A stretch of DNA of 64,000 bases, taken from positions 6,470 to 70,469 of the IMG/VR virus record IMGVR_UViG_3300027749_000100. One strand, 5' to 3'. A program made the translations under genes and the position numbers. The notes under the pieces were generated by a model. That model was given only the letters and a program-made list of their open reading frames with translations. It was not told the origin of the DNA and made no database searches. This document shows, piece after piece, positions 26,676-55,517 of the stretch. How positions within the stretch are numbered: the first letter of the stretch is position 1; each line of letters begins with the position of its first letter. Source of the stretch: a virus.

Positions 26676-29093
26676 TTATTTTTTATTTTTTTCTTCAAGT
26701 GCAAATATTCTGGATGTCAAATTTTCTATTTCTAATGATAATTCCTTGAACGCATTTACCAATGCCCACATGAGATCACTGGCGTTGATGTTGTAGATTT
26801 GCGTTTCTATTTCTTCGCCATTTTCTGATTTTTCCTTGTATGTATACGTTCCAACCATTTCGGGCCAAGAAGACAATATTTCCTGCGCAATTACTGAGAC
26901 ATGATCCTTGCCGTCATCTTTTGATCCAAATTTTCCATTCAGGCGATACACGACTGGATTCAATTGCTTGATGGCACTTAGGCCTTTGACATAGGGATGA
27001 AGAACTGTCTTGATTCGAGAGTCGGAAGCGATGGTCCATGTATCTGTGTCCGGCTTGGATGCAGAATCTGTATTAACAACAAGTGAAGAACATTGCATTA
27101 TGCCGAACAAGCCCACGTTCCATATTTGTGTGGCATACACATTGTGACAAAAAACACCGTCTGCTATGTTGACCAGACATGCGTCTTGGTATGGGCCATT
27201 AGCAAAAGGAGTTATAGATGCAGAAACAGTTCCATCCCAACGAGCTCCAATCATCGAATCAATAGAAAATGTTCCAATGTTAAATGGTCCATAATCCTCT
27301 GATGGGTACAAATAATGTGATGCCGCATGAGGCTCCATGGTTAGTGTTTGATTGCTTGATCCATCAAATTTATTTAAAAGAGCATCCGTGGTGGCTATAT
27401 TCATATAAAGTCCTCTGTCCCAAGGATAGAGTTCTGTTTCGCTGGCTGTGCCCATATAGTTAGTGGAAAATGGATAAGAAGTGATTCCTGAAAATGATGG
27501 AGGATCGGGTGGTGTTCCATCTGCTATGGCTGTAATTCTTCCGTATGTATCAACAGTGATGTTTGAGTTTACAAAAGAACCGGGATTTAAATATGACTGA
27601 GTATTATACATGAAAATATTGTTTGATCCATAATTAAGAACGTATACGATGTTATTTAACATAATAATTGAAGTTGGATTGAGATCGGAATTTTGCGATT
27701 CAAGATATGTCAAATTTCCAAAAGTTAGATCAATAACAAATAAATCTACAAGCCCTGTTGAATTGGCAATAGTTTTACAAACAAACAAATGTGTTCCTGC
27801 AGAATTTACACAACTTGACGAAAAAGATTCTGAATAATTGGCGTTAAATGTGTGCAGTAACGAAAGAGAATAATAATTGTCATATATAAATGTTACAATT
27901 CGGTCAGTACACGTAGCGTAAAGAAAATAACATTCAGGATTATTTGTTGCAACAAACTCTAAATCTTGAAGAACTCCACCAGTTTCTACCGATGTAACAT
28001 GTGTCAATTCTCCAGTTTCTGCATTAATAGCGTATTGGCGCAAATATCCATCTGAACATCCTACAAGAAGATTTTCATTAAATTTGTCAACAATCATTGT
28101 TGTTGGGGAAACATATGCCGCCAAACTATATGCAAGAGTAAGCGTTCCATCTTCATTGATAAAATATGAATTTATGTAATCTCCACCAATGAAAAGAAAT
28201 TTTGATTTATCCGTTTTTCTCAGCCATTCTGAAGCTGATGACAAAGAATCTACAGCAATAACAGTAGTGTTATTGCATGTTGATCCAATAGTATTATCAA
28301 AATAAGTTAATGTTCCAGAATAATCAGTATAATAACTTGATATTCCGTTATTGATTGGAGTAAGAACATATACAACTTCCGTTTTAGATGTATTGGTTGT
28401 TTGAGCAACAACTACTGATTTTTGATTGTCATTTAATACAAACGCCCCATTAGTCTGTTCTGACACAAGAGACAAATTTCCCGAAGATTGATCAATGGAG
28501 TAGGCGGCTAGTGTCATACCAGCCCTCACGTAAAGAACCATGTCTGCTGTACTATTATTTTGTTGTCCAGTCACCGTAAGAACCGTCATTGACCTTGGCC
28601 CTACTCCTCCATTTCCACTATTTGATCCAGTTAATGTGGAATAAGAAGTATTGAAAGTTAATTTTACATAGTTATAATTTGTTAGTGAAATATCATTCAT
28701 TAACAATGTTCTTGGGGCAGCGCCACCATTCCAAAAACCAATAGTGTTTGTTGATTCATCTTGTATTTGCAAAGATGAATTAGAAGACAATTTATTAAAC
28801 ATTGATCCTAGCGCAATTGAAGATATTGTAGAATTTTGCAACTTATTATTTGTAATTGTCAAATTTTGAATTTGCTGATTGTATATTTTTCCAGACAATG
28901 TTCCTTGATTGTCAACAGTCTCGTTGTTTGTTGCCACAAGATATCCGGTCAAATCTGGAAGATAATGCGTAGCGGCTCCTGCAACAGCAGGAGCAATTAA
29001 ATTGACATCTCCGGTGTAGTATCCTCCTAATTGAAGGGAAAGATTTACACCAGAACATGCCAACGCCCGTGTTGCGCCTCCATAAAGCGGCAT
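26676..29093 (-). CDS. Fibre protein with divergent beta-propeller insert and C-terminal intramolecular chaperone (peptidase S74-like)
   Basis: SDSRIK...LSAIKQLNPVVYR...VIAQE chaperone motif; blades such as YSIDQSSGNLSL and YAINAETGELTH. Confidence 0.8.
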   Translation of the reverse strand: MPLYGGATRALACSGVNLSLQLGGYYTGDVNLIAPAVAGAATHYLPDLTGYLVATNNETVDNQGTLSGKIYNQQIQNLTITNNKLQNSTISSIALGSMFNKLSSNSSLQIQDESTNTIGFWNGGAAPRTLLMNDISLTNYNYVKLTFNTSYSTLTGSNSGNGGVGPRSMTVLTVTGQQNNSTADMVLYVRAGMTLAAYSIDQSSGNLSLVSEQTNGAFVLNDNQKSVVVAQTTNTSKTEVVYVLTPINNGISSYYTDYSGTLTYFDNTIGSTCNNTTVIAVDSLSSASEWLRKTDKSKFLFIGGDYINSYFINEDGTLTLAYSLAAYVSPTTMIVDKFNENLLVGCSDGYLRQYAINAETGELTHVTSVETGGVLQDLEFVATNNPECYFLYATCTDRIVTFIYDNYYSLSLLHTFNANYSESFSSSCVNSAGTHLFVCKTIANSTGLVDLFVIDLTFGNLTYLESQNSDLNPTSIIMLNNIVYVLNYGSNNIFMYNTQSYLNPGSFVNSNITVDTYGRITAIADGTPPDPPSFSGITSYPFSTNYMGTASETELYPWDRGLYMNIATTDALLNKFDGSSNQTLTMEPHAASHYLYPSEDYGPFNIGTFSIDSMIGARWDGTVSASITPFANGPYQDACLVNIADGVFCHNVYATQIWNVGLFGIMQCSSLVVNTDSASKPDTDTWTIASDSRIKTVLHPYVKGLSAIKQLNPVVYRLNGKFGSKDDGKDHVSVIAQEILSSWPEMVGTYTYKEKSENGEEIETQIYNINASDLMWALVNAFKELSLEIENLTSRIFALEEKNKK

Positions 29094-30269
29094 TTATTGA
29101 GCCGCCTCAAGTATTGCCGCTCGTGCTTTCAGTGCATCCACTTGTGCCGATAATTCCTTAACTGCATTTACCATCGCCCACTTTATATCATTTGCATTGA
29201 TATTATAAAGTTCTGTAGAAATTTCTGTTCCATCATCCTTTTTTTCAACATGCGTGTATGTTCCAACCATTTCAGGCCACGAAACTGCCGCCTCTTGTGC
29301 AATCACTGAAACGTGATCTTTTCCGTTGTCTTTTGATCCGTACAAGCCATTGAGCCTATATACTACAGGGTTTAATTGCTTAATGGCAGAAAGTCCTTTT
29401 TGATACAAATGAAGAACGTTTTTTACTCTTGAATCAGAAGTAATTGTCCATAAATCAGTAGCTGGCTTTGTTGCGTTATCGGTGTTTACAATAAGTGAAT
29501 TGCACTGAATTTCATAAAGTGCAGTAACATTTTGCGCATATATTCCAGCGTAATCAGTAGCAAAATCAACATAATTGCTTTCTGTTTTTTTTAAAGTTAA
29601 TATTGCTGCCTCTGAGCCATCATAAAAGTCGAGTATACCGGTCATGCCCACAGTGCTAAATTGAAGAGCTCCATAGGTAGTCAATTGAGAAAGATGCTCA
29701 ATGCCTCTAGACACCGTTACTTCTGATGAACCATCCCAACTTGTAACAATATTTTGACTTGTATCTAATGCAACAAGTCCTGTTCCGAAATTCAACGGAT
29801 ATGACGTTGTTCCATTTACAGAACCTCCTGACGCTCCTCCGTTTGATGCAGCGGTCACTCGCCCATATTGATCAACAGTCAGGGAAGCGTCGGTATAGGT
29901 GCCTGCGGGATTTGAAGCAAGCGGTTTCAACGAGATGGTTTTTGCGGCCGATCCATTATATGTTGTTCCACTATTTAACATTAGCGTATTGTTGTCAACA
30001 GTGAGATTAAACAAATTTGATCCCAAAGACACTCCAGATATGCTTGAGTTAGCCAATTTCCCATTGGCAATGGGTCCTGCCAGCATTGAGTTTGTAACCG
30101 TGCCAGTATCGCCGGATCCGATCAATGTGCCGGAAGCCGCCGGAAGCTGGAGTGTTACTCCGGTTGTTCCCGCTGGAGCAGCATAAATAGTTGCTGACCC
30201 GCTGGTTGACCCATACAACGTCAAGGATGCTCCAGTAAATGCTTTTGTCAGTCCCCCGTATGAAGGCAT
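29094..30269 (-). CDS. Fibre protein with C-terminal intramolecular chaperone (peptidase S74-like)
   Basis: SDSRVKN...LSAIKQLNPVVYR...VIAQE followed by a coiled coil; shaft motif TVDQYGRVTAASNG. Confidence 0.8.
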   Translation of the reverse strand: MPSYGGLTKAFTGASLTLYGSTSGSATIYAAPAGTTGVTLQLPAASGTLIGSGDTGTVTNSMLAGPIANGKLANSSISGVSLGSNLFNLTVDNNTLMLNSGTTYNGSAAKTISLKPLASNPAGTYTDASLTVDQYGRVTAASNGGASGGSVNGTTSYPLNFGTGLVALDTSQNIVTSWDGSSEVTVSRGIEHLSQLTTYGALQFSTVGMTGILDFYDGSEAAILTLKKTESNYVDFATDYAGIYAQNVTALYEIQCNSLIVNTDNATKPATDLWTITSDSRVKNVLHLYQKGLSAIKQLNPVVYRLNGLYGSKDNGKDHVSVIAQEAAVSWPEMVGTYTHVEKKDDGTEISTELYNINANDIKWAMVNAVKELSAQVDALKARAAILEAAQ

Positions 30270-30281
30270 TTTGGTTCTCCT

Positions 30282-33200
30282 CTATCCCACTTCGGTAGTT
30301 TCAATGACTGCCACCCAGCGAATTCGCGTGCTTGCTAATCCAGTTACAGCAATTTGCAAAGATCCAAACATCGATGTTTCTGCAACAACAGTAAACGAAA
30401 CTTGCGAAAGCTGCGAATCAACAGCAACAGCAGTAACAGTAGGAGATCCAATAATGGTTGTTGTTCCATTTGTTGCTGTTTTTCTAATTGCTCCCGTAAT
30501 TTCCCAATTTCCGCCAAATGATCCATAGGTTGTAGTTGAATTTGTTCCTATTGTTCCAGAAGAAGCAACTAATTGAATAGTAAATCTGTACGTACTATTA
30601 TTAGGTAAAACAATATGGTTTGCTGAATCAAATGTTCCCGTTCCATCTGCGGTCATATTAACTGCAGACGCATTTGTTGTAGTTGCGCGAAGAACATGCA
30701 ACCCGAATTGCGCGTCGCCATTGGAAGCAAATCGCCCAGCAGAATAAGCAAATTTTCCGTACAATTGCGCATTACCATACAGTCCTCCCGGAATAGCAGA
30801 GTAATCTCCAGAAGCTGCATTGCCCGAACCTCCGCTGATAACCGAAACTGATCCGCTAGATACTTGCAAAGATGCATTACGTATTGTTTGCCAATCTACT
30901 GAATTTGTTCCTCTCTTGTTTCCTCCTGTTGATGAATTATCGGGAATGTTTCCAAGCAGCGATCCTGTTCCTTTTGGTCGTAAAACAAGATCAACATCAG
31001 TAGTTGATCCCGCTGCCGTCAAAGAATCCACATAAGTATAAGTATTAGGCGAAGATGTGCTTTCAGCAAAAGCAACCTGCGTGATTGATGTGCCTCCCGT
31101 TCCGTTTTCTGCAGCGATAATTCTTCCTTGCGCATCCACAGTAATATTTGCAGATGTGTAAGAACCTGCAGATACATCAGTGTTTGTCAAAGAAATAGTG
31201 ACTGCAGAAGAGCCATTGAAACTGGTTCCTGAAAGTCCGCTACCTATAGTTAGAGCATTGGTAGTTGTGACCCCAGCTCCCGGTGTTGACCAGAAAAGTT
31301 CACCCGACCCATTGGTGCTAAGCACCTGTCCGCTTGCTCCGTCAGAAGGCAATACATATGTAGTTGATCCCGCAATGGCAGGAGCGACAAGACTCACTGC
31401 TCCTGATGTTGATCCGGAAATACTTAGTGTTCCCTTGACATCGAGAATGTCTCTGAATGTTCCACTATTTGCCGCAAAATTATTGATACGATAGGTTTGT
31501 ACCGTAGTAGTGCCAAGACGATTCACCACAAAAGCAAACCTGCCAGTTGGGTCAACCGCAACACCATAAGGAGCTAACCCCGTTGCTGCCGTTCCGACCG
31601 AGGTCAATGCTCCGGTGGATTGATTGATGGTATAGGCCTGCACCGTGGAGCTACTATAATTCGTCACAAAAGCAAATCTGCCAGTTGGGTCAACCGCAAC
31701 ACCATTAGGAGCTGACCCCGTTGCTGCTGTTCCAATCGAGGTCAATGCTCCGGTAGATTGATTGATGGTGAAGGCTTGTACCGTAGTGCTACCATAATTC
31801 GTCACAAAAGCAAACCTGCCAGTTGGGTCAACCGCAACACCCTGAGGAGCTAACCCCGTTGCTGCCGTCCCTACCGAGGTCAATGCTCCGGTAGCTTGAT
31901 TAATGGTGTAGGACTGAACTCCTGTTGCGGCGCTACCATAATTCACCACAAAAGCAAATCTGCCAGTTGGGTCAACCGCAACACCACAAGGATTTGTCCC
32001 CGTTGCTGCTGTTCCAATCGAGGTTAATGCTCCGGTAGATTGATTGATCGTATAGGCTTGCACGGTATTGCTAATGCTAGAATAATTCGTCACAAAAGCA
32101 AATCTGCCAGTTGGATCAACCGCAACAGCATAGGGATAATTCCCCGTTGCTACCGCACCTACCGAAGTCAATGCTCCGGTAGATTGATTGATGGTATAGG
32201 CTTGTACGGTGGCGCTACTATAATTCGGGACAAAAACAAACCTGCCAGTGGGGTCAACCGCAACACCGTAGGGACCTGATCCCGTTGCTGCCGTGCCTAC
32301 CGAGGTCAATGCTCCGGTAGATTGATTGATTGTATAGGCTTGCACCGTGGCGCTACTACCATTTGTCACAAAAGCAAACCTGCCAGTTGGGTCAACCGCA
32401 ACACCAGAAGGAGCTGACCCCGTTGCTGCCGTCCCTACCGAGGTCAATGCCCCTGTTCCTCCGTGAAAAGTCGGTGGAGGAAGAAGATTATTACTCGTCA
32501 CCGCCCCATACGTAATCGACGATCCCGAGATGGGATTTCCGACAATATATTGAGTTGATCTCAATTGCCCTTGAATATCTGCTCCTGCTTGTATCGATTG
32601 TGTTCTTCCCGCTCCTACCACAAGAGGCGCGGCAAACGTCTGTGTGGCTGTCCATGCATGTGCAATTGCTAGCGCATCCGCCGCAGTAGTAATTCTTCCC
32701 TGTGCATCTACTGTAATACTTGCAACAGGGTATGAACCTGCTGTTACTGCAGTGTTTGCCAATGCAATTGTTACTGCAGCAGAACCATTGAAACTTGTTC
32801 CCGAAAGTCCCGTTCCAATGGTCAGCGCATTGGGAGTGTTAACACTAATGTCTCCCGATCCATTGAACGCAACACCGTTGATGTTTCGAGAAGTGGTAAG
32901 CGTTGCAGCACTTGTTGCCGTGGAAGCATTTCCGGAAAGTGCTCCATAAAACGTTGTCGCTTCCATGTCTCCAAGTGTGCCGGAATATACTTCAGAAACA
33001 TTTGTTCCGTCAGGGATAAATGCAAATCTTTGATTATTTCGCCGAAATCCAAAAAATCCTTTTTTTGCGGTAGAATTATACCACTGAAACTCAACACCTC
33101 TGTCTTTTGCATCATTGGAAATGAGTGTCGCGCCATCGACACCTCCGCCAAGGCTGATGATTGGATCCTTCAAAACTGTCGTTGTTGCATTAACTGTAAT

Positions 33201-33926
33201 TGTAGTTCCATTTACCGTAAAATTTCCACCAACAGTCACGTCGGCAAATGTTTGCGCAGCAGTCCAAGTATTTGAATTGCCTAAATTTAAGGTAATGGTG
33301 TTTGCTTCTGATCCATTAAACGTTCCAGTTGTTCCAGAAAGTCCTGATCCAATGGTGAGTGCATTTGGAACACCACTTCCGTTTGAAGCGGACGTAATCC
33401 TTCCTTGCGCATCGACAGTGATGTTTGCTGTAGAATACGAACCTGCTGTTACTGCAGTATTTGCCAATGCAATTGTTACTGCAGCAGAACCATTGAAACT
33501 TGTTCCCGAAAGTCCCGTTCCAATGGTTAGAGAATTTGTTGTGGTGCTTGTTGCGCTGCCGCTTGATGCAGCAGTGATTCGTCCTTGAGCATCGACAGTC
33601 AGGGCAGCATTCGTATAGGAACCCGGAGTAACTGCAGTGGAAGCAATTCCAATGGTTACATCTCCGGTGGCTGCATTGACAGAAATTCCCGTTCCAGCAG
33701 CAACTGAGGTGACCGGCTTCTTCCAAGTTCCGGGCGTTCCTCCCGCAATGCATATGTGAAGTACGCCTGAGCGATCAATGACAAAATCACCAACAGAAAA
33801 CGTTCCCGTCGTCGGGGCACCCGAAGCAGTTGCTCCCACATATCGAGACAGCTCTTTTGATCCGCTTAACCCTGTAGCGGTCAAAGTGGACGTTCCGGAA
33901 AATGAACTCAGTTTCGCTACTGGCAT
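30282..33926 (-). CDS. Fibre protein with shaft repeats, one 7-blade YVTN/lactonase-like beta-propeller and conserved ...TTEVG C-terminal domain
   Basis: Repeated GSY..ANITVDAQGRITAAS shaft motif; seven GVAVDPTGRFAFV blades. Confidence 0.85.
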   Translation of the reverse strand: MPVAKLSSFSGTSTLTATGLSGSKELSRYVGATASGAPTTGTFSVGDFVIDRSGVLHICIAGGTPGTWKKPVTSVAAGTGISVNAATGDVTIGIASTAVTPGSYTNAALTVDAQGRITAASSGSATSTTTNSLTIGTGLSGTSFNGSAAVTIALANTAVTAGSYSTANITVDAQGRITSASNGSGVPNALTIGSGLSGTTGTFNGSEANTITLNLGNSNTWTAAQTFADVTVGGNFTVNGTTITVNATTTVLKDPIISLGGGVDGATLISNDAKDRGVEFQWYNSTAKKGFFGFRRNNQRFAFIPDGTNVSEVYSGTLGDMEATTFYGALSGNASTATSAATLTTSRNINGVAFNGSGDISVNTPNALTIGTGLSGTSFNGSAAVTIALANTAVTAGSYPVASITVDAQGRITTAADALAIAHAWTATQTFAAPLVVGAGRTQSIQAGADIQGQLRSTQYIVGNPISGSSITYGAVTSNNLLPPPTFHGGTGALTSVGTAATGSAPSGVAVDPTGRFAFVTNGSSATVQAYTINQSTGALTSVGTAATGSGPYGVAVDPTGRFVFVPNYSSATVQAYTINQSTGALTSVGAVATGNYPYAVAVDPTGRFAFVTNYSSISNTVQAYTINQSTGALTSIGTAATGTNPCGVAVDPTGRFAFVVNYGSAATGVQSYTINQATGALTSVGTAATGLAPQGVAVDPTGRFAFVTNYGSTTVQAFTINQSTGALTSIGTAATGSAPNGVAVDPTGRFAFVTNYSSSTVQAYTINQSTGALTSVGTAATGLAPYGVAVDPTGRFAFVVNRLGTTTVQTYRINNFAANSGTFRDILDVKGTLSISGSTSGAVSLVAPAIAGSTTYVLPSDGASGQVLSTNGSGELFWSTPGAGVTTTNALTIGSGLSGTSFNGSSAVTISLTNTDVSAGSYTSANITVDAQGRIIAAENGTGGTSITQVAFAESTSSPNTYTYVDSLTAAGSTTDVDLVLRPKGTGSLLGNIPDNSSTGGNKRGTNSVDWQTIRNASLQVSSGSVSVISGGSGNAASGDYSAIPGGLYGNAQLYGKFAYSAGRFASNGDAQFGLHVLRATTTNASAVNMTADGTGTFDSANHIVLPNNSTYRFTIQLVASSGTIGTNSTTTYGSFGGNWEITGAIRKTATNGTTTIIGSPTVTAVAVDSQLSQVSFTVVAETSMFGSLQIAVTGLASTRIRWVAVIETTEVG
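31485..32450 (-). repeat. 7 x ~138-nt propeller-blade repeats (VAVDPTGRFAFV subtype)
   Basis: Seven blades counted in the translation; DNA framework near-identical between units. Confidence 0.92.
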
Positions 33927-34264
33927 TATGTAATCTCCACTCCAAACACACTAACAGCCAAAGTATTTGCACTGGCCGAAAAAAGCAAATATTTATTTGT
34001 CGCATCCAATGTCAATCCGACCGTGATGAACGATGTATCATTTGCGGACACTGTTCCATCATAGATGATGTATCCGTTGATATCTCCGGGATAGACATTG
34101 GCAGTGGAAACACAAAGGCGATACGTGACGTTGGATGATCCCGTGTTGCACACGGACATGGTGCTTACCACCGCAGCAGTTGTGGCACAGGTATACAATA
34201 CTTGCGCGGTCGCAGGTGTTGAATTGGAAATAATTGAATTCAATCTTTTATATACTTGCGCCAC
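33926..34264 (-). CDS. Small fibre-associated (adaptor-like) virion protein
   Basis: GTG start with GGGAGA RBS; LYTC....VVSTMSVCN...YIIYD..V.ANDT...VGLTL; similar size and pattern to 1558..1953; TAATG coupling to the next gene. Confidence 0.7.
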   Translation of the reverse strand: MAQVYKRLNSIISNSTPATAQVLYTCATTAAVVSTMSVCNTGSSNVTYRLCVSTANVYPGDINGYIIYDGTVSANDTSFITVGLTLDATNKYLLFSASANTLAVSVFGVEIT

Positions 34265-34346
34265 ATTATTTCTCCCTTGATATTTGACTTATTGTATCAA
34301 ATGATGCAGTATTGTTTTGCGTTGCTTTTTGTCGCGTACAAAGAGA

Positions 34347-34523
34347 TCAAGAGGGGCGTTGAATTTTCTTGCTTGCCCATTTTTCAATTTCCACGCTGGT
34401 GCCGACATACCAGCCGTCATCAAGTTGAACCATCCGGTGGTTTACCTCAATGTCGCTCACATCCTCATCGGTCAATGGGCCATAGATATACGGATCGTCA
34501 AATCGGTCAAAAATGGAAATCAT
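34347..34523 (-). CDS. Possible small acidic hypothetical protein
   Basis: GGAGGA precedes ATG (MISIFDRFDD...) and the ORF fills the gap between two genes. Confidence 0.45.
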   Translation of the reverse strand: MISIFDRFDDPYIYGPLTDEDVSDIEVNHRMVQLDDGWYVGTSVEIEKWASKKIQRPS

Positions 34524-34537
34524 GATGTCCTCCAGAC

Positions 34538-35755
34538 TTATCCCCAAAAGGATTTTGTTTCAAGCCAATAATATAATTTTGTAATAAAAGTATACGGTCT
34601 TATGGTGGCGTTTGCAATGGTTTTTATTGCGCCGCTAATTGGAGGGGAAATTGGTCGATAGGTACTGAGTGCGTCGAAATTGAAATTGCGAAATCCCACA
34701 CGAGTGTTTCGAGTGATGACAGGAAAATTGAATGCTTTTGATTGAGATGTTTGATAATAGACTATATTTGGATAATAAGAAAAAACAGTGCTCGAACCAG
34801 TATTTGCCACATACACAAATTTCCCTGTGGGATCACAGGCAACGCCTTGGGGATTAGTTCCCGTTGCCACCGCTCCCACCGAAGTCAATGCTCCGGTGAT
34901 TGCATTGATCGTGTAGGCCTGAACGGTGCTTGAAGTAAAATTCGCCACATACACAAATTTCCCCGTGGGATCACAGGCAACAATGTAGGGATTAGTTCCC
35001 GTTGCCGTTGTTCCCATCGAGGTCAATGCTCCGGTACTTGCATTGATCGTGTAGGCCGAAACGGTGTCTGAACTATAATTCGTCACATACACAAATTTCC
35101 CCGTGGGATCACAAGCAACGCCGTAGGGATTAGTTCCCGTTGCCGTTGTTCCCACCGAGGTCAATGCTCCGGTGATTGCATTGATCGTGTAGGCCTGAAC
35201 GGTGTTTGGATTAATATTCGCCACATACACAAATTTCCCCGTGGGATCACAGGCAACACCGTTGGGACCAGCCCCCGTTGCCGCTGTTCCCACCGAGGTC
35301 AATGCTCCGGTTACTTGATTGATCGTGTAGGCCTGAACGGTGTTTCCTCCGAGTCCATTGTAATTATTCGCCACATAGACAAATTTCCCCGAGGGATCAC
35401 AGGCAACACCCCAAGGAAATGCTCCCGTTGCGGTTGTTCCCACCGAGGTCAATGCTCCGGTACTTGCATTGATCGTGTAGGCTTGAACGGTGCTTGAACC
35501 AGCATTCGTCACATACACGAATTTCCCTGTGGGATCACAGGCGACAAAGTAGGGACTAGTTCCCGTTGCTGCCGTCCCGACCGAGGTCAATGCTCCGGTA
35601 CTTGCATTGATCGTGTAGGCCTGAACGGTACTTGAACTCAGATTCGTCACATACACAAATTTTCCTGTGGGATCACAGGCAACGCCGATGGGAATACTCC
35701 CGGTCATTGCTGTTCCCAAATTGCTGAAATTGTGTGAAAATACAATTCCTGCCAT
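34538..35755 (-). CDS. Single 7-blade beta-propeller protein with basic C-terminal tail
   Basis: Seven VACDP(T/S)GKFVYV blades; ends ...KSFWG. Confidence 0.85.
   Translation of the reverse strand: MAGIVFSHNFSNLGTAMTGSIPIGVACDPTGKFVYVTNLSSSTVQAYTINASTGALTSVGTAATGTSPYFVACDPTGKFVYVTNAGSSTVQAYTINASTGALTSVGTTATGAFPWGVACDPSGKFVYVANNYNGLGGNTVQAYTINQVTGALTSVGTAATGAGPNGVACDPTGKFVYVANINPNTVQAYTINAITGALTSVGTTATGTNPYGVACDPTGKFVYVTNYSSDTVSAYTINASTGALTSMGTTATGTNPYIVACDPTGKFVYVANFTSSTVQAYTINAITGALTSVGAVATGTNPQGVACDPTGKFVYVANTGSSTVFSYYPNIVYYQTSQSKAFNFPVITRNTRVGFRNFNFDALSTYRPISPPISGAIKTIANATIRPYTFITKLYYWLETKSFWG
34775..35720 (-). repeat. 7 x ~138-nt propeller-blade repeats (VACDPTGKFVYV subtype)
   Basis: Seven blades counted; boundaries approximate. 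Confidence 0.9.
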
Positions 35756-35801
35756 ACTTACACTTCAGCAGACATATTTTTTGGCGCAAAAAAATTATGC
35801 A

Positions 35802-38800
35802 TCATGTTCCCCAATACGTCACATTTCTTGGAAGCATGGTTGTTATTTTTTTATTTACTTGATAGGGGGTAATACGGGAAGTATTTATTTTTGTGTCCGG
35901 ATTTATTGATGGCTGAGAAACCTGATAGTCAAATTGCGTCAAGGCCAATCCGGCATATCCTGAAGTCGCTGCCGCCAAATATCTATTTCTGTTTGAAATA
36001 GTTGCTAATTGCAAAGTAGAATCGGAAGAATATGTATTAATATATGTCAATGCACCGGTTGATTGATTGATAGAATATACTTCTATTGCAGATCCATTAT
36101 TGTAATAAAAAACTTCCGAACGTGAATCAACTGCAGAATAATATGTAAAGCCTGTTGATCCATAATTTCCAACAAGTGTCAACGCCCCAGTTGACTGGTT
36201 GATAGAGTATGAAAATATGGAAGATGGTAAAGCAGGGCCAATAAAACAGGCGTATAAAAATCTATTGTATGTATCAACTACTAAATCAACACATTGCTCA
36301 GTAGAGGCAGGAGATATTGCCGATCCAACTGCAGTCAAAACTCCTGTTGTTTGATTTATGGAATATGCTTGCAATATTCCCGCAATGCCGTTATTACTTC
36401 CTCCAACATACAGGAATTTTCCTGTGTTATCGCTTTTTGTAACATATGGCCGTGTCATTGTTGCAGGAAGAGTGGTTGTACCTAAAAACGTAAACCCTAT
36501 ATAAATTGTGTACGTTTGAACAGTGTTATCACCATAATTCACCACATAGACAAATTTTCCCGTGGGATCGCAAGCAACGTGGTAGGAAGATGTCCCCGCT
36601 GTCGCTGTTCCCACCGAGGTCAATGCTCCGGTACTTGCATTGATCGTGTAAGCTTGAACGGTATTTGAGGCCACATTCGCCACATACACAAATTTCCCTG
36701 TGGGATCACAGGCAACGCCGTAGGGACAAGTTCCTGTTGCCGCTGTTCCCACCGAGGTCAATGCTCCGGTGATTGCATTGATCGTGTAGGCCTGAACGGT
36801 GTATGGACCAAAATTCGCCACATACACAAATTTCCCCGTGGGATCACAGGCAACGCCTTGGGGATTATTTCCCGTTGCCACCGCTCCCACCGAAGTCAAT
36901 GCTCCGGTGATTGCATTGATCGTGTAAGCTTGAACGGTGTTGTCAATAGCATTCGTCACATAGACAAATTTTCCCGTGGGATCACAGGCAACGCTTTGGG
37001 GACCACTTCCCGTTGCCGCTGTTCCCACCGAGGTCAATGCTCCGGTACTTGCATTGATCGTGTAGGCTTGAACGGTGTTTCCGCCCACTCCATTGAAAGC
37101 ATTCACCACAAACACGAACTTTCCCGTGGGATCACAAGCAACGGCGTAGGGAGTTGTCCCCGTTGCTACCGCTCCCACCGAGGTTAATGCTCCGGTACTT
37201 GCATTGATCGTGTAGGCTTGCACGGTGTTTGAACCAAGATTCACCACATAGACAAACTTTCCCGTGGGATCACAAGCAACGCCGTAGGGATTTGTCCCCG
37301 TTGCTGCCGTTCCCACCGAAGTCAATGCTCCGGTAGTTGCATTGATTGTGTAGGCTTGAACGGTATTTGTACCAGTATTCGTCACATACACAAACTTTCC
37401 CGTGGGATCGCAGGCAATGAAGTAAGGAGCAGTCCCCGTCCCCGTCGCCACCGTTCCCATAGAGTTCAATGCTCCAGTATCGTCTTTTACATCAAACCTT
37501 TTTAATTGATTTACGTCACTTTCTAGAGCATAAAAAAATCTTCCATATGATTCAAAAGTTATACTTGCCTTACTACTAGCGGCTGTAGTAATTGTGTAGG
37601 CTTGAACGGTGGCTGAACTCTGATTCGCCACATACACAAATCTGCCGGTTGGATCAGACGCAACACCCCAAGGATTTGATCCCGTTGCCGCTGATCCCAT
37701 CAAAGTCAATGCTCCGGTACTTGCATTGATCGTGTAGGCTCGAACGGTACCTGAAGTATAATTCGTCACATAGACTTTCCCCGTGGAGTCACAAGCAACG
37801 GCGAAGGGATTAGTTCCCGTTGCCACCGCTCCCACCGAAGTCAATGCTCCGGTACTTGCATTGATCGTGTAGGCTTGAACCGTGTTGTCACCAGAATGCG
37901 CCACATAGACAAACTTCCCCGTAGGATCACAGGCAACGCTTTGGGGACCACTTCCCGTTGCCGCTGTTCCCACCGAGGTCAATGCTCCGGTAGTTTGATT
38001 GATTGTGTAGGCCTGAACGGTGCCCGATGCACCGATAGAATTCGTCACATACACAAATTTCCCTGTGGGATCACAGGCAACACCGTAGGGGCCAGCTCCC
38101 GTTGCCGCTGTTCCCACCGAGGTCAATGCTCCGGTACTTGCATTGATCGTGTAGGCTTGAACGGTCCATGGAGTATAATTCGCCACATACACAAATTTCC
38201 CCGTGGGATCACAGGCAACGCCTTGGGGATTATTTCCCGTTGCTGCCGTCCCGACCGAGGTCAATGCTCCGGTACTTGCATTGATTGTGTAGGCTTGAAC
38301 GGTGGCTGAACCAGTATTCGTCACGTACACGAATTTTCCCGTGGGATCACAGGCAACGCCTTGAGGACTTGTCCCCGTTGTCACCGCCCCCACCGAGGTT
38401 AATGCTCCGGTAGTTGCATTGATCGTGTAGGCATGAACGATACTTGAACCCTGATTCGTCACATAGACAAATTTCCCCGTGGGGTCACAGGCAACGCCGG
38501 TGGGATAAGTTTCCGTTGCCGCTGTGCCCACCGAGGTCAATGCTTCAGACAATAACGACGCAGATAGCACTCTTTGCCTTTCAATAAATTCGCCAGTGGT
38601 TATGCTGTAAGAAAATCTAATCCAATAAAAACCAGTCTCTGACTGTAATTTGACAAAAAGTTCATTTTTTTGCGGATGAAACACAGCGCTATATATGGTA
38701 TTGCCGCTAGAAACTGTATGTTCTCCTAGTTTTATTAAATAATCATTATTTATTTTGTATAATACGCCTTTGTCCGCGCCTCCAACATACATTAAAGTCC

Positions 38801-41078
38801 TTGTTTTGTCAACAGCGACGCATTGTGAACCAGATTGTGCAATACGACTGTATCCCGAAACATAATTTCCAACTTCACCAACATCTTTATATCTATAATA
38901 ATATGTAGATCGTATAAAACTTTTGGAAGAACTGGTAAATGGATACGAGTATGCGTTGTTTTTTATTTTACTTAAGGACGACCGCGGCAAGGAAAAGGAT
39001 TTGGAAGAACTGGTAGAAATATTGTTTAGGTAATTTGTCGAAAGAGGAAACAATTCGCAAAGGCGATATGAAAAATTATTAGAAATTTTATTTTTTGAGG
39101 ATACAGAATAATAAGAAATAATGGGAGTAAAATAACGCTGAACGGTGTTTGAGCTATTATTCGCCACATAGACAAACTTCCCCGTGGGATCACAGGCAAC
39201 GCCGTAGGGACTAGTTCCCGTTGCTGCCGTCCCGACCGAGGTCAATGCTCCGGTACTTGCATTGATCGTATAGGCCTGAACGGTGTCTGCATTAGCATTC
39301 GTCACATACACAAACTTCCCCGTGGGATCACAGGCAACACCACGAGGAGCACTCCCCGTTGCCGCTGTTCCCACCGAGGTCAATGCTCCGGTGATTGCAT
39401 TGATTGTGTAGGCCTGAACGGTGTTTGAAACATAATTCGTCACATACACAAACTTCCCCGTGGGATCACAGGCAACACCACGAGGAGCACTCCCCGTTGC
39501 CACCGCTCCCACCGAGGTCAATGCTCCGGTGATTGCATTGATCGTGTAGGCCTCAACGTCGAATGAAGTAGCAATCGTCACATACAAAAACTTCCCCGTG
39601 GGGTCACAGGCCACTTCATAGGGAGTTGTCCCCGTTGCTTTTGTTCCCACCGAGGTTAATGCTCCGGTACTTGCATTGATTGTGTAATACTGAACGGTGT
39701 TTGAAACTCGATTCAACACATACACAAATTTCCCTGTGGGGTCACAGGCCACTCCATAGGGATAAGTTCCCGTTGACACTGCTCCCACCGAAGTCAATGC
39801 GCCGGTACTTGCATTGATCGTGTAGGCCTCAACGGTGCCAAAACTAAGGTTGGTCACATAGACAAATTTCCCCGTGGGATCACAGGCAACACCGGAGGGA
39901 GCTGATCCCGTTGCGGTTGTTCCCACCGAGGTCAATGCGCCGGTACTTGCATTGATTGTGTAGGCCGAAACGCTGGCTGAGCTATTATTCACCACATAGA
40001 CAAATTTTCCCGTGGGATCGCAAGCAACGTTGTAGGGAGTTGTCCCCGTTGCCGCTGTTCCCACCGAGGTCAATGCTCCGGTACTTGCATTGATCGTGTA
40101 CGCCTGAACGGTGTTTCCTCCGGCTCCAGTGAAACTATTCGCCACAAAAACAAATTTCCCCGTGGGATCACAGGCAACGCCTTGAGGACTTGTCCCCGTT
40201 GCCACCGCCCCCACCGAGGTTAATGCTCCGGTAGTTGCATTGATCGTGTAGGCCTGAACGGTGTTTGAATACTGATTCGCCACATAAACGAATTTCCCCG
40301 TGGGATCACAGGCAACACCCACAGGGTATGTCCCCGTTGCCACCGCTCCCGCCGAAGTCAATGCTCCGGTACTTGCATTGATTGTGTAGGCCTGAACGGT
40401 GGTTGAATTATAATTCGTCACATACACGAATTTCCCCGTGGGATCACAGGCAACGTTTTGGGGAAAACTCCCCGTTGCTGCCGTCCCGACCGAGGTCAAT
40501 GCTCCGGTGATTGCATTGATTGTGTAGGCCTGAACGGTGTCTGATTGATTATTCGTCACATACACAAATTTCCCCGTGGGATCACAGGCAACGCCTGTAG
40601 GGTTATTTCCCGTTGCCGCTGTTCCCACCGAGGTCAATGCTCCGGTGATTGCATTGATTGTGTAGGCTTGAACGGTGTTTGATAAAACATTCACCACATA
40701 GACAAACTTCCCCGTGGGATCACAGGCAACACCGAGGGCACCTGTTCCCGCTGCCGTTGTTCCCATCGAGGTCAATGCTCCGGTAACACTGTTGATCGTG
40801 TAGGCCGAAACCGTATATGAACTGCCATTCACCACATAGACAAACTTCCCCGTGGGATCACAAGCAACGCCTCGGGGATTAGTTCCCGTTGCCGTTGTTC
40901 CCACCGAGGTCAATGCTCCGGTAGTTGCATTGATCGTGTAGGCCTGAACGGTGTTTGAAACATAATTCGTCACATACACAAACTTCCCCGTGGGATCACA
41001 GGCAACACCCCAAGGATTTGTTCCCGCGCTTACAGGATTAACATTGGGAAAATTATATCCAGCATCAATTTGCGCCAT
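35802..41078 (-). CDS. Multi-beta-propeller adhesin-like protein (14+7+7 conserved blades plus ~7 divergent blades)
   Basis: 28 near-identical blades in three blocks, separated by AT-rich divergent segments. Confidence 0.88.
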   Translation of the reverse strand: MAQIDAGYNFPNVNPVSAGTNPWGVACDPTGKFVYVTNYVSNTVQAYTINATTGALTSVGTTATGTNPRGVACDPTGKFVYVVNGSSYTVSAYTINSVTGALTSMGTTAAGTGALGVACDPTGKFVYVVNVLSNTVQAYTINAITGALTSVGTAATGNNPTGVACDPTGKFVYVTNNQSDTVQAYTINAITGALTSVGTAATGSFPQNVACDPTGKFVYVTNYNSTTVQAYTINASTGALTSAGAVATGTYPVGVACDPTGKFVYVANQYSNTVQAYTINATTGALTSVGAVATGTSPQGVACDPTGKFVFVANSFTGAGGNTVQAYTINASTGALTSVGTAATGTTPYNVACDPTGKFVYVVNNSSASVSAYTINASTGALTSVGTTATGSAPSGVACDPTGKFVYVTNLSFGTVEAYTINASTGALTSVGAVSTGTYPYGVACDPTGKFVYVLNRVSNTVQYYTINASTGALTSVGTKATGTTPYEVACDPTGKFLYVTIATSFDVEAYTINAITGALTSVGAVATGSAPRGVACDPTGKFVYVTNYVSNTVQAYTINAITGALTSVGTAATGSAPRGVACDPTGKFVYVTNANADTVQAYTINASTGALTSVGTAATGTSPYGVACDPTGKFVYVANNSSNTVQRYFTPIISYYSVSSKNKISNNFSYRLCELFPLSTNYLNNISTSSSKSFSLPRSSLSKIKNNAYSYPFTSSSKSFIRSTYYYRYKDVGEVGNYVSGYSRIAQSGSQCVAVDKTRTLMYVGGADKGVLYKINNDYLIKLGEHTVSSGNTIYSAVFHPQKNELFVKLQSETGFYWIRFSYSITTGEFIERQRVLSASLLSEALTSVGTAATETYPTGVACDPTGKFVYVTNQGSSIVHAYTINATTGALTSVGAVTTGTSPQGVACDPTGKFVYVTNTGSATVQAYTINASTGALTSVGTAATGNNPQGVACDPTGKFVYVANYTPWTVQAYTINASTGALTSVGTAATGAGPYGVACDPTGKFVYVTNSIGASGTVQAYTINQTTGALTSVGTAATGSGPQSVACDPTGKFVYVAHSGDNTVQAYTINASTGALTSVGAVATGTNPFAVACDSTGKVYVTNYTSGTVRAYTINASTGALTLMGSAATGSNPWGVASDPTGRFVYVANQSSATVQAYTITTAASSKASITFESYGRFFYALESDVNQLKRFDVKDDTGALNSMGTVATGTGTAPYFIACDPTGKFVYVTNTGTNTVQAYTINATTGALTSVGTAATGTNPYGVACDPTGKFVYVVNLGSNTVQAYTINASTGALTSVGAVATGTTPYAVACDPTGKFVFVVNAFNGVGGNTVQAYTINASTGALTSVGTAATGSGPQSVACDPTGKFVYVTNAIDNTVQAYTINAITGALTSVGAVATGNNPQGVACDPTGKFVYVANFGPYTVQAYTINAITGALTSVGTAATGTCPYGVACDPTGKFVYVANVASNTVQAYTINASTGALTSVGTATAGTSSYHVACDPTGKFVYVVNYGDNTVQTYTIYIGFTFLGTTTLPATMTRPYVTKSDNTGKFLYVGGSNNGIAGILQAYSINQTTGVLTAVGSAISPASTEQCVDLVVDTYNRFLYACFIGPALPSSIFSYSINQSTGALTLVGNYGSTGFTYYSAVDSRSEVFYYNNGSAIEVYSINQSTGALTYINTYSSDSTLQLATISNRNRYLAAATSGYAGLALTQFDYQVSQPSINPDTKINTSRITPYQVNKKITTMLPRNVTYWGT
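36504..37472 (-). repeat. 7-blade repeat block
   Basis: ALNSMG...VQTYTI; seven blades. Confidence 0.9.
37590..38543 (-). repeat. 7-blade repeat block
   Basis: ALTSVG...VQAYTI; seven blades. Confidence 0.9.
39133..41028 (-). repeat. 14-blade repeat block
   Basis: Fourteen consecutive blades with a ~138-nt period. Confidence 0.9.
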
Positions 41079-41080
41079 GA

Positions 41081-43432
41081 TTAAACCTTCAACAGCAGTC
41101 TGCTTGTTGCAAACGCCTGATTACTCGAAGTAGTAAACACATTATTTGAATAATACAATGTGCTTGCAGTGGCAAAAACGACACGAGGACCAGTCACTTG
41201 CAAGTTACCCACGAACGCTCCCATGGCGTTGGTGGTGATGGTAACGGTTGCCTGAGTGATGTACGTCGGAAGACCGGGCGTGGCATTGGTTGGATCGGAA
41301 AGAAGAACTCTGGCGTTGTAACTTGCCGAACTTTTTCCCTTGGTGGTAATGCAGAATATGCCACGAAACGGCGCGACAAGAAGATCGCCAAGGTAATCGG
41401 TTGATGCTTCAACCCTGTGCGAGTATGTGTTTGCCAGCACACCAGTCGTCAGCGTGTTATTGGCCTGTGAAACCAATGCATTGCTCACGCGATGAATCGC
41501 CCCGGTGGTCAAGTTACTGATGATCGCATAAATTGTTCCAGTAAGTGAATCAATGTAAAAAGAAGTGGCATTGACTGGAGTGGCACTTGTTGTGGTGTTT
41601 ACCAAGTTGGCAACATCGTACAGCAGCACTCCTGTATCGGCGGTGAATGAAGACATTCTTTGTGTTTGCGCCGATGCTGCGGTGCCGTTCTGGCTGGCCA
41701 CATAGCACACACCCGCGTAATCAGGCACTGGAGTGCCCCATGCGGCGGCAAATGCCAACGTGGTGGCACTCGGGTGAATGCCTGCATTTGCCGTGTATGT
41801 CGAACGATTCACCATTGTTACCGTTGGCCTCAACATCACTTGGCGTGATGAGGCATACACGTACTTGTTGTCAATGCCAAGATATCCGCTTCCCATCATG
41901 CCAATGGTTGCCGTAGCCGACGCTGCGGTGGTATATCCTGTTCCGCCATAGATGACCGTAATTGCGCCAGCAGGAACGCCTGTGGTCACACCAATGGACA
42001 GAAGAGCGTAGTTGCCGGAAGTCGACAGACTGAAATACAATGTTCCCGTCTGACCGCCAAGATATCCCGTGCCTCCGGCACTTATTGTTGCAGCGGTGAT
42101 TACACCGGACGATGCTGTGGTCGTGACAGTCAATCCTGATCCTGCCGTATTTGGAAAGGTCAGTGAAGTTGCTGCCAACGTTTCCGTGTCAATCTTTACA
42201 AGACCAAAATATGTTGCGCCATAAAGCGTCCGTTCTCCATCAAACAGGAGATCAATGACTGACGTGTTTGCCGTAGCCGTAGGATTTGTCCACGCAAGCG
42301 TTGGAGCGACCGTACCGGAAGACATGGGCCAGTAATAAATGCCCTGCTGGTTGCAAGCCCAGAGGTTATCACCAATGGCGATGACCTTGCTTGCCTGACT
42401 CGTAAGCGCCGAACTTGCCACTGGAGTGGACATCTTGTTGGCACCATACGTAATGGTACCGATTTCCGATCCGCCATTCAGCGGAAGAATGGCGCAATCG
42501 GTATTTGTTCCAGTAGAAGAAACCCAACCTCCAGTACTGTCCAGAGGAATGGTAATCGTATCCAAATGCGATCCGATTGTTCCGGTAACGCTCAAGTTGT
42601 ATGTTCTGCCAAACGGCATGTACTTGGTGCTTGCATCCACGGAAATGGGCGATGCATACACCTTGCTTGAAGAGGTGTCCCATCCATACGTCATGTTGTA
42701 GTACGATCCAAGATGAAGAAGGTTCGAGTCAACGGTGATGGCCACTGTTCCGGATGGATACACCGGAGGATACATTCCGCGATTGGTAACTGGAGCGTAT
42801 AGCGCAGCAGCGGCAGCGCCAGTCAATCCGTCCTGTGTCCTCGGGAACGCATACATGATTCTGCTTACGGCCGTTAATTTGCCGTGCGGAGTGCCCATCA
42901 TCACGCTGCTCGTCCATGCCCAGCATGGTGCGTTATTGGCAACGGTATCTTCGGGCACCGCACGTTCAAACTCGAATACGCCAGTCCACATGTCTGGCTC
43001 CGACTTGATGTAGGGCCAGATCACCAAATGCCTTGCCGATGCGCCGACAAAAATAAAACAATCCTTCAGATCATAATGCTGGGCAAATGCTCCTGCACCA
43101 GTCCACGATTCATTGGTGGCAACGTGCGTTGATGCATTCCAACTTTCACAAGTGGAGGTATAAAATGTGGATTTTACGACATCCCAGCGCAAAATAAAAT
43201 ATTTGTATGTTGTCGCATCTGCATTCAGCACTCGATACACATACGTATAAAGCGGAGAAAAAGTACTTGTCGTACCAAGTCCGGGTACAGAGTTGGCGAC
43301 ATAATCATACTGCGTCCACCCAAGCGTGGTAATTGCCGTATTGACACCGGAAAAAATATTCGTGAACGTCACTTCGTTCGAGATATTTACCCGATAGCTA
43401 TTTGCCCCATACAGATAATTTGTTACGGTCAT
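41081..43432 (-). CDS. Putative virion structural protein (aromatic N-terminal domain, beta-rich C-terminal region)
   Basis: 783-aa ORF within the fibre block; contains a GSGLTV...GGTGY insert also seen in the sheath. Confidence 0.65.
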   Translation of the reverse strand: MTVTNYLYGANSYRVNISNEVTFTNIFSGVNTAITTLGWTQYDYVANSVPGLGTTSTFSPLYTYVYRVLNADATTYKYFILRWDVVKSTFYTSTCESWNASTHVATNESWTGAGAFAQHYDLKDCFIFVGASARHLVIWPYIKSEPDMWTGVFEFERAVPEDTVANNAPCWAWTSSVMMGTPHGKLTAVSRIMYAFPRTQDGLTGAAAAALYAPVTNRGMYPPVYPSGTVAITVDSNLLHLGSYYNMTYGWDTSSSKVYASPISVDASTKYMPFGRTYNLSVTGTIGSHLDTITIPLDSTGGWVSSTGTNTDCAILPLNGGSEIGTITYGANKMSTPVASSALTSQASKVIAIGDNLWACNQQGIYYWPMSSGTVAPTLAWTNPTATANTSVIDLLFDGERTLYGATYFGLVKIDTETLAATSLTFPNTAGSGLTVTTTASSGVITAATISAGGTGYLGGQTGTLYFSLSTSGNYALLSIGVTTGVPAGAITVIYGGTGYTTAASATATIGMMGSGYLGIDNKYVYASSRQVMLRPTVTMVNRSTYTANAGIHPSATTLAFAAAWGTPVPDYAGVCYVASQNGTAASAQTQRMSSFTADTGVLLYDVANLVNTTTSATPVNATSFYIDSLTGTIYAIISNLTTGAIHRVSNALVSQANNTLTTGVLANTYSHRVEASTDYLGDLLVAPFRGIFCITTKGKSSASYNARVLLSDPTNATPGLPTYITQATVTITTNAMGAFVGNLQVTGPRVVFATASTLYYSNNVFTTSSNQAFATSRLLLKV

Positions 43433-55466: not shown

Positions 55467-55517
55467 ACATGATATTTTACACAAAAAATTTTTTATGCTT
55501 ACCCTTTCACTATGTTA

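Follow-up and report, generated by a model that had tools for sequence, protein, structure and literature searches.

Arrays of predicted seven-bladed β-propellers with hypervariable loops encoded among the fibre genes of a large phage

How does a phage come to carry dozens of protein blades that share one framework while differing from copy to copy in the same two short segments, and what would it use them for? The question is raised by a 64-kb stretch (the window, meaning here the whole DNA analysed) of the IMG/VR virus record IMGVR_UViG_3300027749_000100, a linear record of 70,469 bases with a CheckV completeness of ~40%. Three genes on the minus strand, which carries all the long open reading frames (ORFs) of the window, encode tandem blades of the lactonase/YVTN type, and we call them A, B, and C. 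An earlier reading of the letters alone (the original prediction) had seen in them six seven-bladed propellers with different binding surfaces, reshuffled in the manner of antibodies or variable lymphocyte receptors (VLRs). In the reading that we favour, the 42 canonical blades build six closed seven-bladed propellers on three tail-fibre-module proteins, and these propellers are probably host-binding heads, diversified over evolutionary time by selection and by recombination among blades.

The blades were parsed by their anchor motifs in the three ORFs, with canonical blades of 46–50 amino acids (aa) at periods of 45–50 aa, and this gave 7 blades in gene A, 7 in gene B, and 28 (14+7+7) in gene C. 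Tandem Repeats Finder reported 138-nt arrays at 31527-32450, 34784-35687, 36537-37439, 37594-38544, and 39138-41016, with 78–82% matches. The count and the consensus of the original prediction are borne out. Its total of 42 is right for the canonical blades and leaves out about seven degenerate blades of gene C. The framework is also less uniform than the “near-identical in DNA” first claimed, given that the 31 non-terminal blades of genes B and C differ by 0.08/0.07/0.225 at the three codon positions, that is, ~87.5% identity. Gene A has N-terminal fibre repeats, one seven-blade propeller of what we call the A-type (framework VAVDPTGRFAFV), and a C-terminal domain, whereas in gene B a single seven-blade propeller of the C-type (framework VACDPTGKFVYV) leads into a conserved C-terminal tail of 65 aa. 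Gene C begins with 14 young blades, continues with a Ser-rich linker and what may be an older, divergent propeller into which two young seven-blade cassettes are inserted, and ends in a tail (Table 1).

We then built a hidden Markov model (HMM) from the 42 blades and ran it on the window and its relatives. In gene C it finds runs of 14, 16, and 2 blades. Taking all the loci together, every one of the 23 runs of canonical blades bounded by non-blade sequence has 7, 14, or 21 blades; besides these, three are truncated where a contig stops, and another six, in gene C and its orthologues, contain young blades together with old ones. That all bounded runs are multiples of seven supports closed seven-bladed units and argues against random misassembly. 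The family assignment is likewise clear, with the Pfam family PF10282 (Lactonase, 7-bladed beta-propeller) matching genes A, B, and C at 134.5, 256.5, and 718.2 bits, respectively, against a cut-off of 21.7; 20 of the 21 PF10282 matches in the whole record lie above that cut-off. The YVTN repeat TIGR02276 matches B and C at 58.2 and 137.3 bits (cut-off 27.85), gene A not being among the proteins listed for it.

Gene B was modelled with AlphaFold2 (AF2) from a 43-row alignment, giving a mean predicted local distance difference test score (pLDDT) of 83.4 and a predicted template modelling score (pTM) of 0.80, with 301 of the 405 residues at 90 or above. The model has 28 strands in seven groups of four, the blades lying above 90, plus an extra N-terminal strand at residues 8–17 that may close the ring, and a tail (337–405) below 50. 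In the Protein Data Bank, the top Foldseek match of this model is the chain 1l0q_A (E 3e-20, 35% identity over 283 columns), followed by lactonase-family structures, the highly repetitive propeller 2ymu, and the WRAP-T designs, and the Foldseek probability to seven-bladed lactonase and YVTN structures is 1.00. Gene B is thus predicted to be a closed seven-bladed propeller, and this model, together with the 23 multiples of seven, agrees with the six seven-blade propellers proposed at the outset.

The variation of the blades is concentrated in two segments, as the original prediction had it. In the alignment of the 42 blades, Shannon entropy has two maxima, one at columns 6, 7, 9, and 10 on either side of the invariant-like Pro and the other at columns 25 and 30–32 beyond the Asn, with 1.6–3.3 bits, whereas most framework columns have 0–0.9 bits. 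The segment after the Asn has 4–8 residues, with a 2- or 4-residue insertion in some blades. As to composition, S, G, N, T, and Y are over-represented in the loops (Y at 10% vs. a background of 3.5%, N at 13% vs. 5.8%), unlike W (1.1% against 1.0%) and F (3.1% against 2.9%); the claim that they are rich in Y/W/F/N/S therefore stands for Y, N, and S, and falls for W and F. The longer form of loop 2, x-x-N-G-x-G-G-N, with four extra residues, recurs in blades B3, C7, and C24 of the window and also at the related loci L013, L019, L020, L023, L024, L032, and L054, at varied blade positions and on both kinds of framework (A-type and C-type), with as many as three copies in a single propeller (L020).

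Where these segments lie follows from the order of the strands. In the AF2 model of gene B, a blade runs from strand 1 (x-G-V-A-C-D) through the turn DPTGK to strand 2 (FVYVTN) and variable segment 2, and then from strand 3 (TVQAYTI) through the turn NASTGA to strand 4 (LTSVGTAA) and variable segment 1, so that segment 1 (x-x-P-x-x) is the connection from strand 4 to strand 1 and segment 2, after the Asn, the connection from strand 2 to strand 3. In an up-and-down meander of four strands, the 4-to-1 and 2-to-3 connections lie at one end and the 1-to-2 and 3-to-4 connections at the other. Both variable segments should therefore face one side of the propeller, which we take to be the “top” face with the D-A and B-C loops of the usual convention, and the conserved turns the other side. 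The single ligand-type face of the original prediction is supported in this manner by strand order and topology, and on the modelled fold each propeller face is a set of about 14 individual S/G/N/T/Y-rich loops on a constant scaffold.

The loops also change faster than the framework. With Nei–Gojobori counts over the 31 non-terminal B and C blades, the framework has a proportion of synonymous differences (pS) of 0.27, a proportion of nonsynonymous differences (pN) of 0.07, and a synonymous divergence (dS) of 0.34, and the eight loop columns have pS 0.44, pN 0.53, dS 0.66, and a nonsynonymous divergence (dN) of 0.91. Loop dN is thus about 2.7 times the framework dS and 1.4 times the loop dS, the elevation that had been anticipated. 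Within the loops, codon positions 1 and 2 differ more (0.54 and 0.57) than position 3 (0.41), the third base being largely kept at columns 7, 25, 30, 31, and 32. These counts are suggestive of diversifying selection on the loops.

The same design is found in bacterial homologues. A search with gene B gave 5,831 proteins at E ≤0.001 among 8,000 candidates scored, and most of these are bacterial proteins of the “lactonase family” or “YVTN family” with 40–58% identity, many of them with signal peptides and Ig-like domains; a chromosomal protein of Polaromonas (locus L073), with 54% identity, is one example. We aligned three sets of blades with the blade HMM, namely, 137 C-type phage blades, 138 A-type phage blades, and 974 bacterial blades from 118 proteins (120 listed minus two phage orthologues), and in all three sets the entropy maxima fall at columns 6, 7, 9, 10, and 25–28 of the 46 match columns. 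Since bacterial blades vary at the same columns, the fixed scaffold with variable top loops is a trait of the family and not an invention of the phage. At L071 (333-6836), a 221-kb contig filed as a gammaproteobacterial metagenome-assembled genome ends in a fibre-like ORF of at least 2168 aa that contains GNVGIGTT repeats as well as a single seven-blade propeller of the A-type (68% identity to the blades of gene B); possibly a large phage, or a prophage, was binned here with a bacterium.

How such arrays change with time can be seen in the relatives. Orthologues of C and B were found at the loci L019, L020, L022, and L023 and also in the proteins P0011 and P0082. Outside the arrays these genes are close to one another: the tail of gene B has 88–95% aa identity to L019, L020, and L022, with dS 0.04–0.13, and gene C has dS 0.14–0.24 at its C terminus and 0.22–0.35 in its middle part. 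Inside the arrays, the picture is a different one. The N-terminal array of gene C has 14 blades in the window, 21 in L019, and 21 in L023; cassette 1 appears as a clean gap, as a whole unit, in the L019 orthologue (alignment with L019, L023, and P0082); and the blades with the 4-residue insertion vary in position and number among orthologues. The 121 blades of the window and its relatives have 121 distinct loop pairs, with 97 first loops and 114 second loops, no whole blade is common to any two places among them, and no blade-by-blade orthology is seen between the window arrays and the related arrays. The expectation that relatives would carry different arrays is therefore sustained, both for the number of propellers and for all of the loops.

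The framework carries the same message. Blades in the same register have a framework dS of 0.39–0.53, about twice the 0.14–0.26 of the flanking non-repeat sequence, and their pS equals that of random blade pairs. Point substitution alone would keep in-register blades as alike as their flanks, and so we infer the replacement of blades by recombination, either within genomes or between related phages. Some blades have a mixed A-type/C-type framework, in P0082 the last young one and in L022 the first. The proposed reshuffling thus survives as replacement and recombination, whereas a mere shuffling of ready-made blades finds no support, with none shared among the 121. Comparing blade types, framework pS for A-type vs. 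C-type blades is 0.28 within and 0.52 between types, and for C-type blades of the window vs. L019, L020, and L022 it is 0.28 within and 0.24–0.28 between genomes. Linkage among 25 polymorphic framework sites in 59 canonical blades has a mean r2 of ~1/n beyond 15 nt. In-register vs. off-register pS for gene B and its orthologues gave no diagonal signal, each cell having ~38 codons and being noisy, and the larger in-register comparison above was relied on in its place.

Gene C adds another layer to this turnover. Its degenerate blades lie at aa 752–837, 1175–1210, and 1537–1686, so that two follow the Ser-rich linker, a third separates the young cassettes, and some four more precede the tail; L019 and L023 keep them all. 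The linker with old blades 1–2 has dS 0.22–0.26 to these two orthologues, and old blades 4–7 with the tail 0.14–0.24. An AF2 model of aa 732–1758 (pTM 0.45) has strands for all the old blades at pLDDT 42–89: eight predicted strands for old blades 1–2 (model residues 22–106, pLDDT 56–64) and 13 for old blades 4–7 (62–89), with the tail after them below 50. The sum of 2+1+4 old blades is seven, which fits two young propellers inserted in an old one, and cassette 1 is missing from L019 exactly between old blades 2 and 3, which fits insertion or deletion at a blade boundary. Two young propellers inserted into an old one are thus a plausible reading of this part of gene C.

Table 1. Propeller genes, their blade arrays, and neighbouring features (positions in the window).
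Feature	Positions	Strand	Basis or remark
Gene A, 1214 aa	30282-33926	-	long fibre protein, PF10282 6.4e-39
Gene A, seven blades, aa 499-824	31455-32432	-	single run of 7
Gene B, 405 aa	34538-35755	-	PF10282 5.2e-76
Gene B, seven blades, aa 15-340	34736-35713	-	anchor parsing, blade HMM, AF2
Gene B, C-terminal tail, aa 341-405	34541-34735	-	kept in relatives; pLDDT 30-37
Gene C, 1758 aa	35802-41078	-	PF10282 2.1e-216 in 16 stretches
Gene C, 14-blade array, aa 15-662, read as two propellers	39093-41036	-	anchor parsing, blade HMM
Gene C, Ser-rich linker and old blades 1-2, aa 663-851	38526-39092	-	kept in L019, L023
Gene C, young cassette 1, seven blades, aa 852-1174	37557-38525	-	pLDDT ~90
Gene C, old blade 3, aa 1175-1210	37449-37556	-	kept in L019, L023; strands at model residues 450-480
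Gene C, young cassette 2, seven blades, aa 1211-1536	36471-37448	-	parsing, alignment, AF2
Gene C, old blades 4-7 and C-terminal tail, aa 1537-1758	35805-36470	-	82-88% identical to L019, L023
Small ORF between genes B and A, 112 aa	33926-34264	-	ORF list
Two adjoining fibre genes with Peptidase_S74 chaperone ends	26676-30269	-	PF13884 at 4.6e-09, 3.5e-07
783-aa gene, upstream of gene C	41081-43432	-	family not assigned
Baseplate wedge subunit	7179-10664		PHROG match
Tail sheath	22881-25106		PHROG match
Major head protein	51115-52866		PHROG match
Head maturation protease	54513-55484		PHROG match

The place of the three genes in the particle is read from their neighbours. With its head, sheath, and baseplate genes, the window is the structural block of a large myovirus-like phage. 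The N-terminal part of gene A matches the structural protein phrog_697 and the tail fiber protein phrog_38058, and its linker–propeller–RINNFAANSGTF module is also present in fibre proteins of L012–L014, L024, and L032. Gene-A-type propellers are joined by a conserved linker, which gene A has too, in other fibre proteins of IMG/VR and metagenomes, with four propellers per protein in L012 and L014, three in L013, two in L017, and one each in L024 and L025. In L024, the propeller stands directly before a Peptidase_S74 chaperone, a position that in known S74 fibres becomes the distal tip after cleavage. Given the sheath, baseplate wedge, and major head genes in the window, the adjoining S74 fibres, the PHROG matches of gene A, and the placement in L024, we infer that A, B, and C are virion proteins of a fibre module, a placement that rests on position and fibre-type domains.

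Some observations on this neighbourhood stand on their own. The two S74-ended genes are paralogues side by side, and the longer one (805 aa) has a very divergent propeller-like insert of ~360 aa that the shorter one lacks; the blade HMM finds only 3 weak matches in it. The tails of genes B and C (34541-34735 and 35805-36020), disordered in AF2, finish in an aromatic residue, Trp, and Gly or Ser (SFWG, YWGT), and an FWS end is also seen on unrelated repeat proteins after the 783-aa homologue at L009 (5857-7080) and L011 (5123-5983); the common aromatic-Trp end may be a shared docking peptide. At 43448-46633, a 1061-aa fibre protein has several near-identical tandem units of ~80–90 aa (GYGITDAQPLDADLTAIAGL...), a repeat system distinct from the blades. 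Neither the 783-aa gene (Pfam and PHROG) nor the 112-aa ORF between genes B and A (Pfam) had any family match. A Sak/Rad52-like recombinase candidate, the ORF at 55679-56467, had no Pfam match at E ≤0.01 and no PHROG match at E ≤0.001, and was therefore not taken as the engine of the shuffling.

The phage itself has no close cultured relative in the GenBank phage collection, as concluded from the absence of any megablast match for 20 kb of the window among its 50,697 records, from tblastn of gene B against the same collection (best ≤29% identity, 13 records), and from the capsid protein, whose best tblastn matches there have 28–32% identity over about one third of its length. Of the sampled words of the stretch, 69–74% are present in four runs labelled as freshwater metagenome. 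Homologues of the 783-aa gene, with 47–54% identity, were found in L009, L010, and L011, in all three with zero blade genes downstream, which makes the propeller genes accessory. At the place of the propeller genes, L009–L011 carry other short low-complexity repeat proteins, and L009 has two tandem paralogues of the 783-aa gene.

We suggest, then, that genes A, B, and C would give the particle several different binding heads, with the conserved C-terminal tails of B and C fixing their propellers to the virion and the propeller faces binding host-surface molecules, whether glycan or protein. The diversity of the heads would come from the amplification of blades, from the gain and loss of whole seven-blade cassettes, and from homologous recombination across the conserved framework DNA that replaces blades or swaps them, while selection would favour amino-acid change in the loops. 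The flanks would be kept as attachment parts, in the usual mosaic pattern of phage fibre genes.

Several points weigh against this proposal. The bacterial homologues vary at the same columns, and variation alone is therefore no proof of a phage–host arms race. The test of selection is weak, given that the loops are near saturation, that loop dN exceeds loop dS by the modest factor given above, and that pairwise dN/dS counts ignore recombination and the shared history of the blades. Three syntenic relatives do without the propeller genes altogether. The C-type blades show no sign of a concerted evolution peculiar to each genome, their pS being about the same within and between genomes, and the loss of linkage beyond ~15 nt fits a star-like history and recombination equally well. 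Lastly, the window is presumably a short-read assembly, and comparable WD40 arrays of fungi are known to come out misassembled from Illumina data (10.1101/2025.01.13.632504).

Part of this doubt goes to another role for the propellers. Bound to the particle or free, they might serve something other than receptor recognition, such as adhesion to particles or slime, decoration of the capsid or the fibres, or decoys against host defences, and the dispensability of the genes in the syntenic relatives, the lack of a fibre shaft in B and C, and the use of the design by bacteria on secreted proteins and lipoproteins with Ig-like domains (Polaromonas L073, P0093) are in accordance with such roles. We hold this to be unlikely, though not negligible, given that the genes sit among fibre genes, that the L024 propeller stands directly before an S74 chaperone, and that a very fast, face-specific divergence of loops between close relatives is typical of the parts that recognize the host.

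A bolder form of the recombination proposal would make the blades of the window and of co-infecting relatives one exchanging pool, in which short-tract gene conversion and unequal exchange across the conserved framework DNA far outpace point substitution. If this were true, the pool would create new binding faces within the population and would be a recombinational generator of receptor diversity without a reverse transcriptase (RT), analogous to the repeat instability of fungal HNWD genes or to the segmental conversion of pilin and VlsE. We consider it distinctly doubtful.

Very unlikely, in our opinion, is that the propellers are enzymes, i.e., lactonases or polysaccharide depolymerases that degrade a surface polymer or a signal of the host. 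The Pfam family is indeed named for lactonases, 6-phosphogluconolactonases appear in the Foldseek list at E ~1e-18, and propeller sialidases occur in the tailspikes of other phages (PMC13564897). Nevertheless, on the 6-phosphogluconolactonase equivalog profile NF008258, genes B and A score 130.3 and 136.8 bits and fall well below its cut-off of 370, and gene C passes (491.5 bits) solely by summing 14 stretches across several propellers. The residues on the usual active-site side differ in every blade and orthologue, with no conserved catalytic set visible, and the closest solved structure is a non-enzymatic propeller of a surface layer.

A programmed generator that rewrites the loops within the population, be it a diversity-generating retroelement (DGR) with its RT, on the model of BPP-1 Mtd, or a high-frequency segmental gene conversion as in pilin and VlsE variation, is highly improbable. 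It would account for the third base being kept while positions 1 and 2 vary (0.63/0.73/0.18 at column 7, 0.77/0.74/0.34 at column 25), which is the pattern that AAY-to-NNY mutagenesis gives, and for arrays that are wholly different between phages with a flank dS of 0.04; a distant RT could also escape a record that is only ~40% complete. However, the RT family PF00078 (RVT_1) is found neither in this 70-kb record (0 of 1) nor in four related ones (0 of 4; 16–75% complete, the record of L024 not being among them), and none of the record's 21 blade matches falls outside the three long ORFs, which leaves no non-coding template copy and no silent store of cassettes in those 70 kb. Framework adenines are invariant (e.g., AAT at columns 24 and 42), and column 9 has CAA, TGG, and CGA codons, which A-mutagenesis of AAY cannot reach.

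The reads are in line with this. They come from four runs, all as Logan contigs, which are blind to rare variants, starts, and levels; X1 and X3 hold the stretch at ≥99% and show no other letters and hence no loop variants, bearing in mind that rare variants drop out of contigs. The other two, X5 and X6, hold 0.23 and 0.19 of the words and show single-nucleotide polymorphisms in the flanks, several short-sided joints (26–53 nt), and uncovered bins; the joints and the uncovered parts may come from other organisms or repeats, and nothing was drawn from them. A DGR was thus rejected as the main explanation because no RT was found in the incomplete records searched, because the 70-kb record has no non-coding blade copy, and because the codon types are incompatible, and the antibody- or VLR-like system of the original prediction is not upheld in its mechanistic sense.

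Least credible of all is that the arrays are short-read artefacts, made of collapsed, expanded, or mis-ordered repeats, as might be suspected from the fungal precedent already cited, from the breaking up of Logan contigs (k=31) over the arrays, and from a 372-nt contig in X1 and X3 that joins 37172 to 39645 through a shared 36-nt word, for the ORFs stay open up to 1758 aa, independent assemblies all give bounded runs in multiples of seven, and the longest exact repeat in 31401-41100 has 74 nt, none reaching 77 nt, so that an assembly with k ≥77 and 150-nt reads can be unambiguous. The 37172/39645 joint fuses blade C10, at its end, in frame to the start of C24 and skips 2472 nt. With it, 15 blades would remain, and it has the same depth as the single-copy contigs, as expected of a mis-join in the graph; we read it as a k=31 graph mis-join, a deletion variant being the alternative.

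Of the known systems, the WD40 arrays of the HNWD/HET-D/HET-E proteins of Podospora anserina, which are nucleotide-binding oligomerization domain-like receptors (NLRs), are the closest working analogue. These arrays have near-alike blades in which diversifying selection acts on a small number of hypervariable sites of the binding face; the number of repeats is polymorphic, and each array has two seven-bladed propellers, which can include cryptic divergent blades (10.1101/2025.01.13.632504). The likeness in our phage lies in the framework pN of 0.07 vs. the loop pN of 0.53, in the 14 vs. 21 blades of gene C and its orthologues, in a cassette that is present or absent, and in the difficulty of assembling such arrays from short reads. 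In contrast, the fungal blades are WD40 blades of intracellular NLR sensors and the phage blades are lactonase/YVTN blades of a fibre module, so the resemblance is functional only; Pfam and NCBIfam profile searches of genes A, B, and C found no NACHT-plus-WD40 (NLR) domains. The HNWD repeats reportedly resemble one another more closely inside a gene than across paralogs (10.1101/2025.01.13.632504), whereas here this holds only for A-type vs. C-type blades and not for the window vs. its close relatives.

Among phages, the closest analogue is found in the gp38 adhesins of the T-even group. Modular exchange of gp38 sets the host range. In these adhesins, conserved glycine-rich motifs frame hypervariable segments (PMC3157838). 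The likeness is one of description only, since gp38 is a small single-domain tip, a polyglycine sandwich, with neither a propeller nor a tandem array. The Mtd protein of the BPP-1 DGR shares with our propellers the variable residues on the fixed scaffold of a phage receptor-binding surface, and NNY-like codons occur here too at some sites; it differs in that neither an RT nor a template repeat was found in the 70-kb record and in that the scaffold here is not of the C-type-lectin/FGS fold.

As for the propellers themselves, 1l0q, from a surface-layer protein of Methanosarcina, belongs to the same TIGR02276 repeat family and is extracellular and non-enzymatic, although it has a single propeller followed by a PKD domain instead of a propeller array. 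We know of no report of blade-specific hypervariable loops in 1l0q. Highly repetitive, recently amplified propellers have been described in two Lactonase-like (PF10282) families, across all kingdoms and including viruses (Pereira and Lupas 2022, PMC9218822), but the passages of that paper found by a term search contain no phage fibre context, hypervariable loops, or multi-propeller proteins, and the word “phage” occurs 0 times in its text. Lactonase domains and propeller lectins are also listed among the domains joined to fibre anchors of extracellular contractile injection systems, which are bacterial fibres, and the passages on them give the co-occurrence of domains without repeat arrays, loop hypervariability, or multi-propeller chains (PMC12923769). 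In the literature that we searched, multi-propeller lactonase/YVTN arrays on phage fibres, with hypervariable loops that differ from blade to blade, are nowhere described.

In summary, no new molecular mechanism of diversification is revealed here; it is the scale that is striking, while the mechanism is ordinary. Host recognition decides which bacteria a phage kills, and phages are known to vary it by means of mosaic fibre tips, gp38-type loops, invertible segments, and DGRs. The window shows another layout, namely, one to four lactonase/YVTN propellers in series on a fibre protein, which we also saw in at least 5 more IMG/VR records and in about a dozen of the metagenome contigs examined. 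If their binding is confirmed, these propellers would amount to natural, modular binding scaffolds, rich in tyrosine and serine and with a very large number of sequence variants, useful both for understanding the host range of uncultured freshwater phages and as scaffolds for binders, and the principle of high internal conservation combined with hypervariable sites, as fungal immune receptors have it, would extend to viruses.

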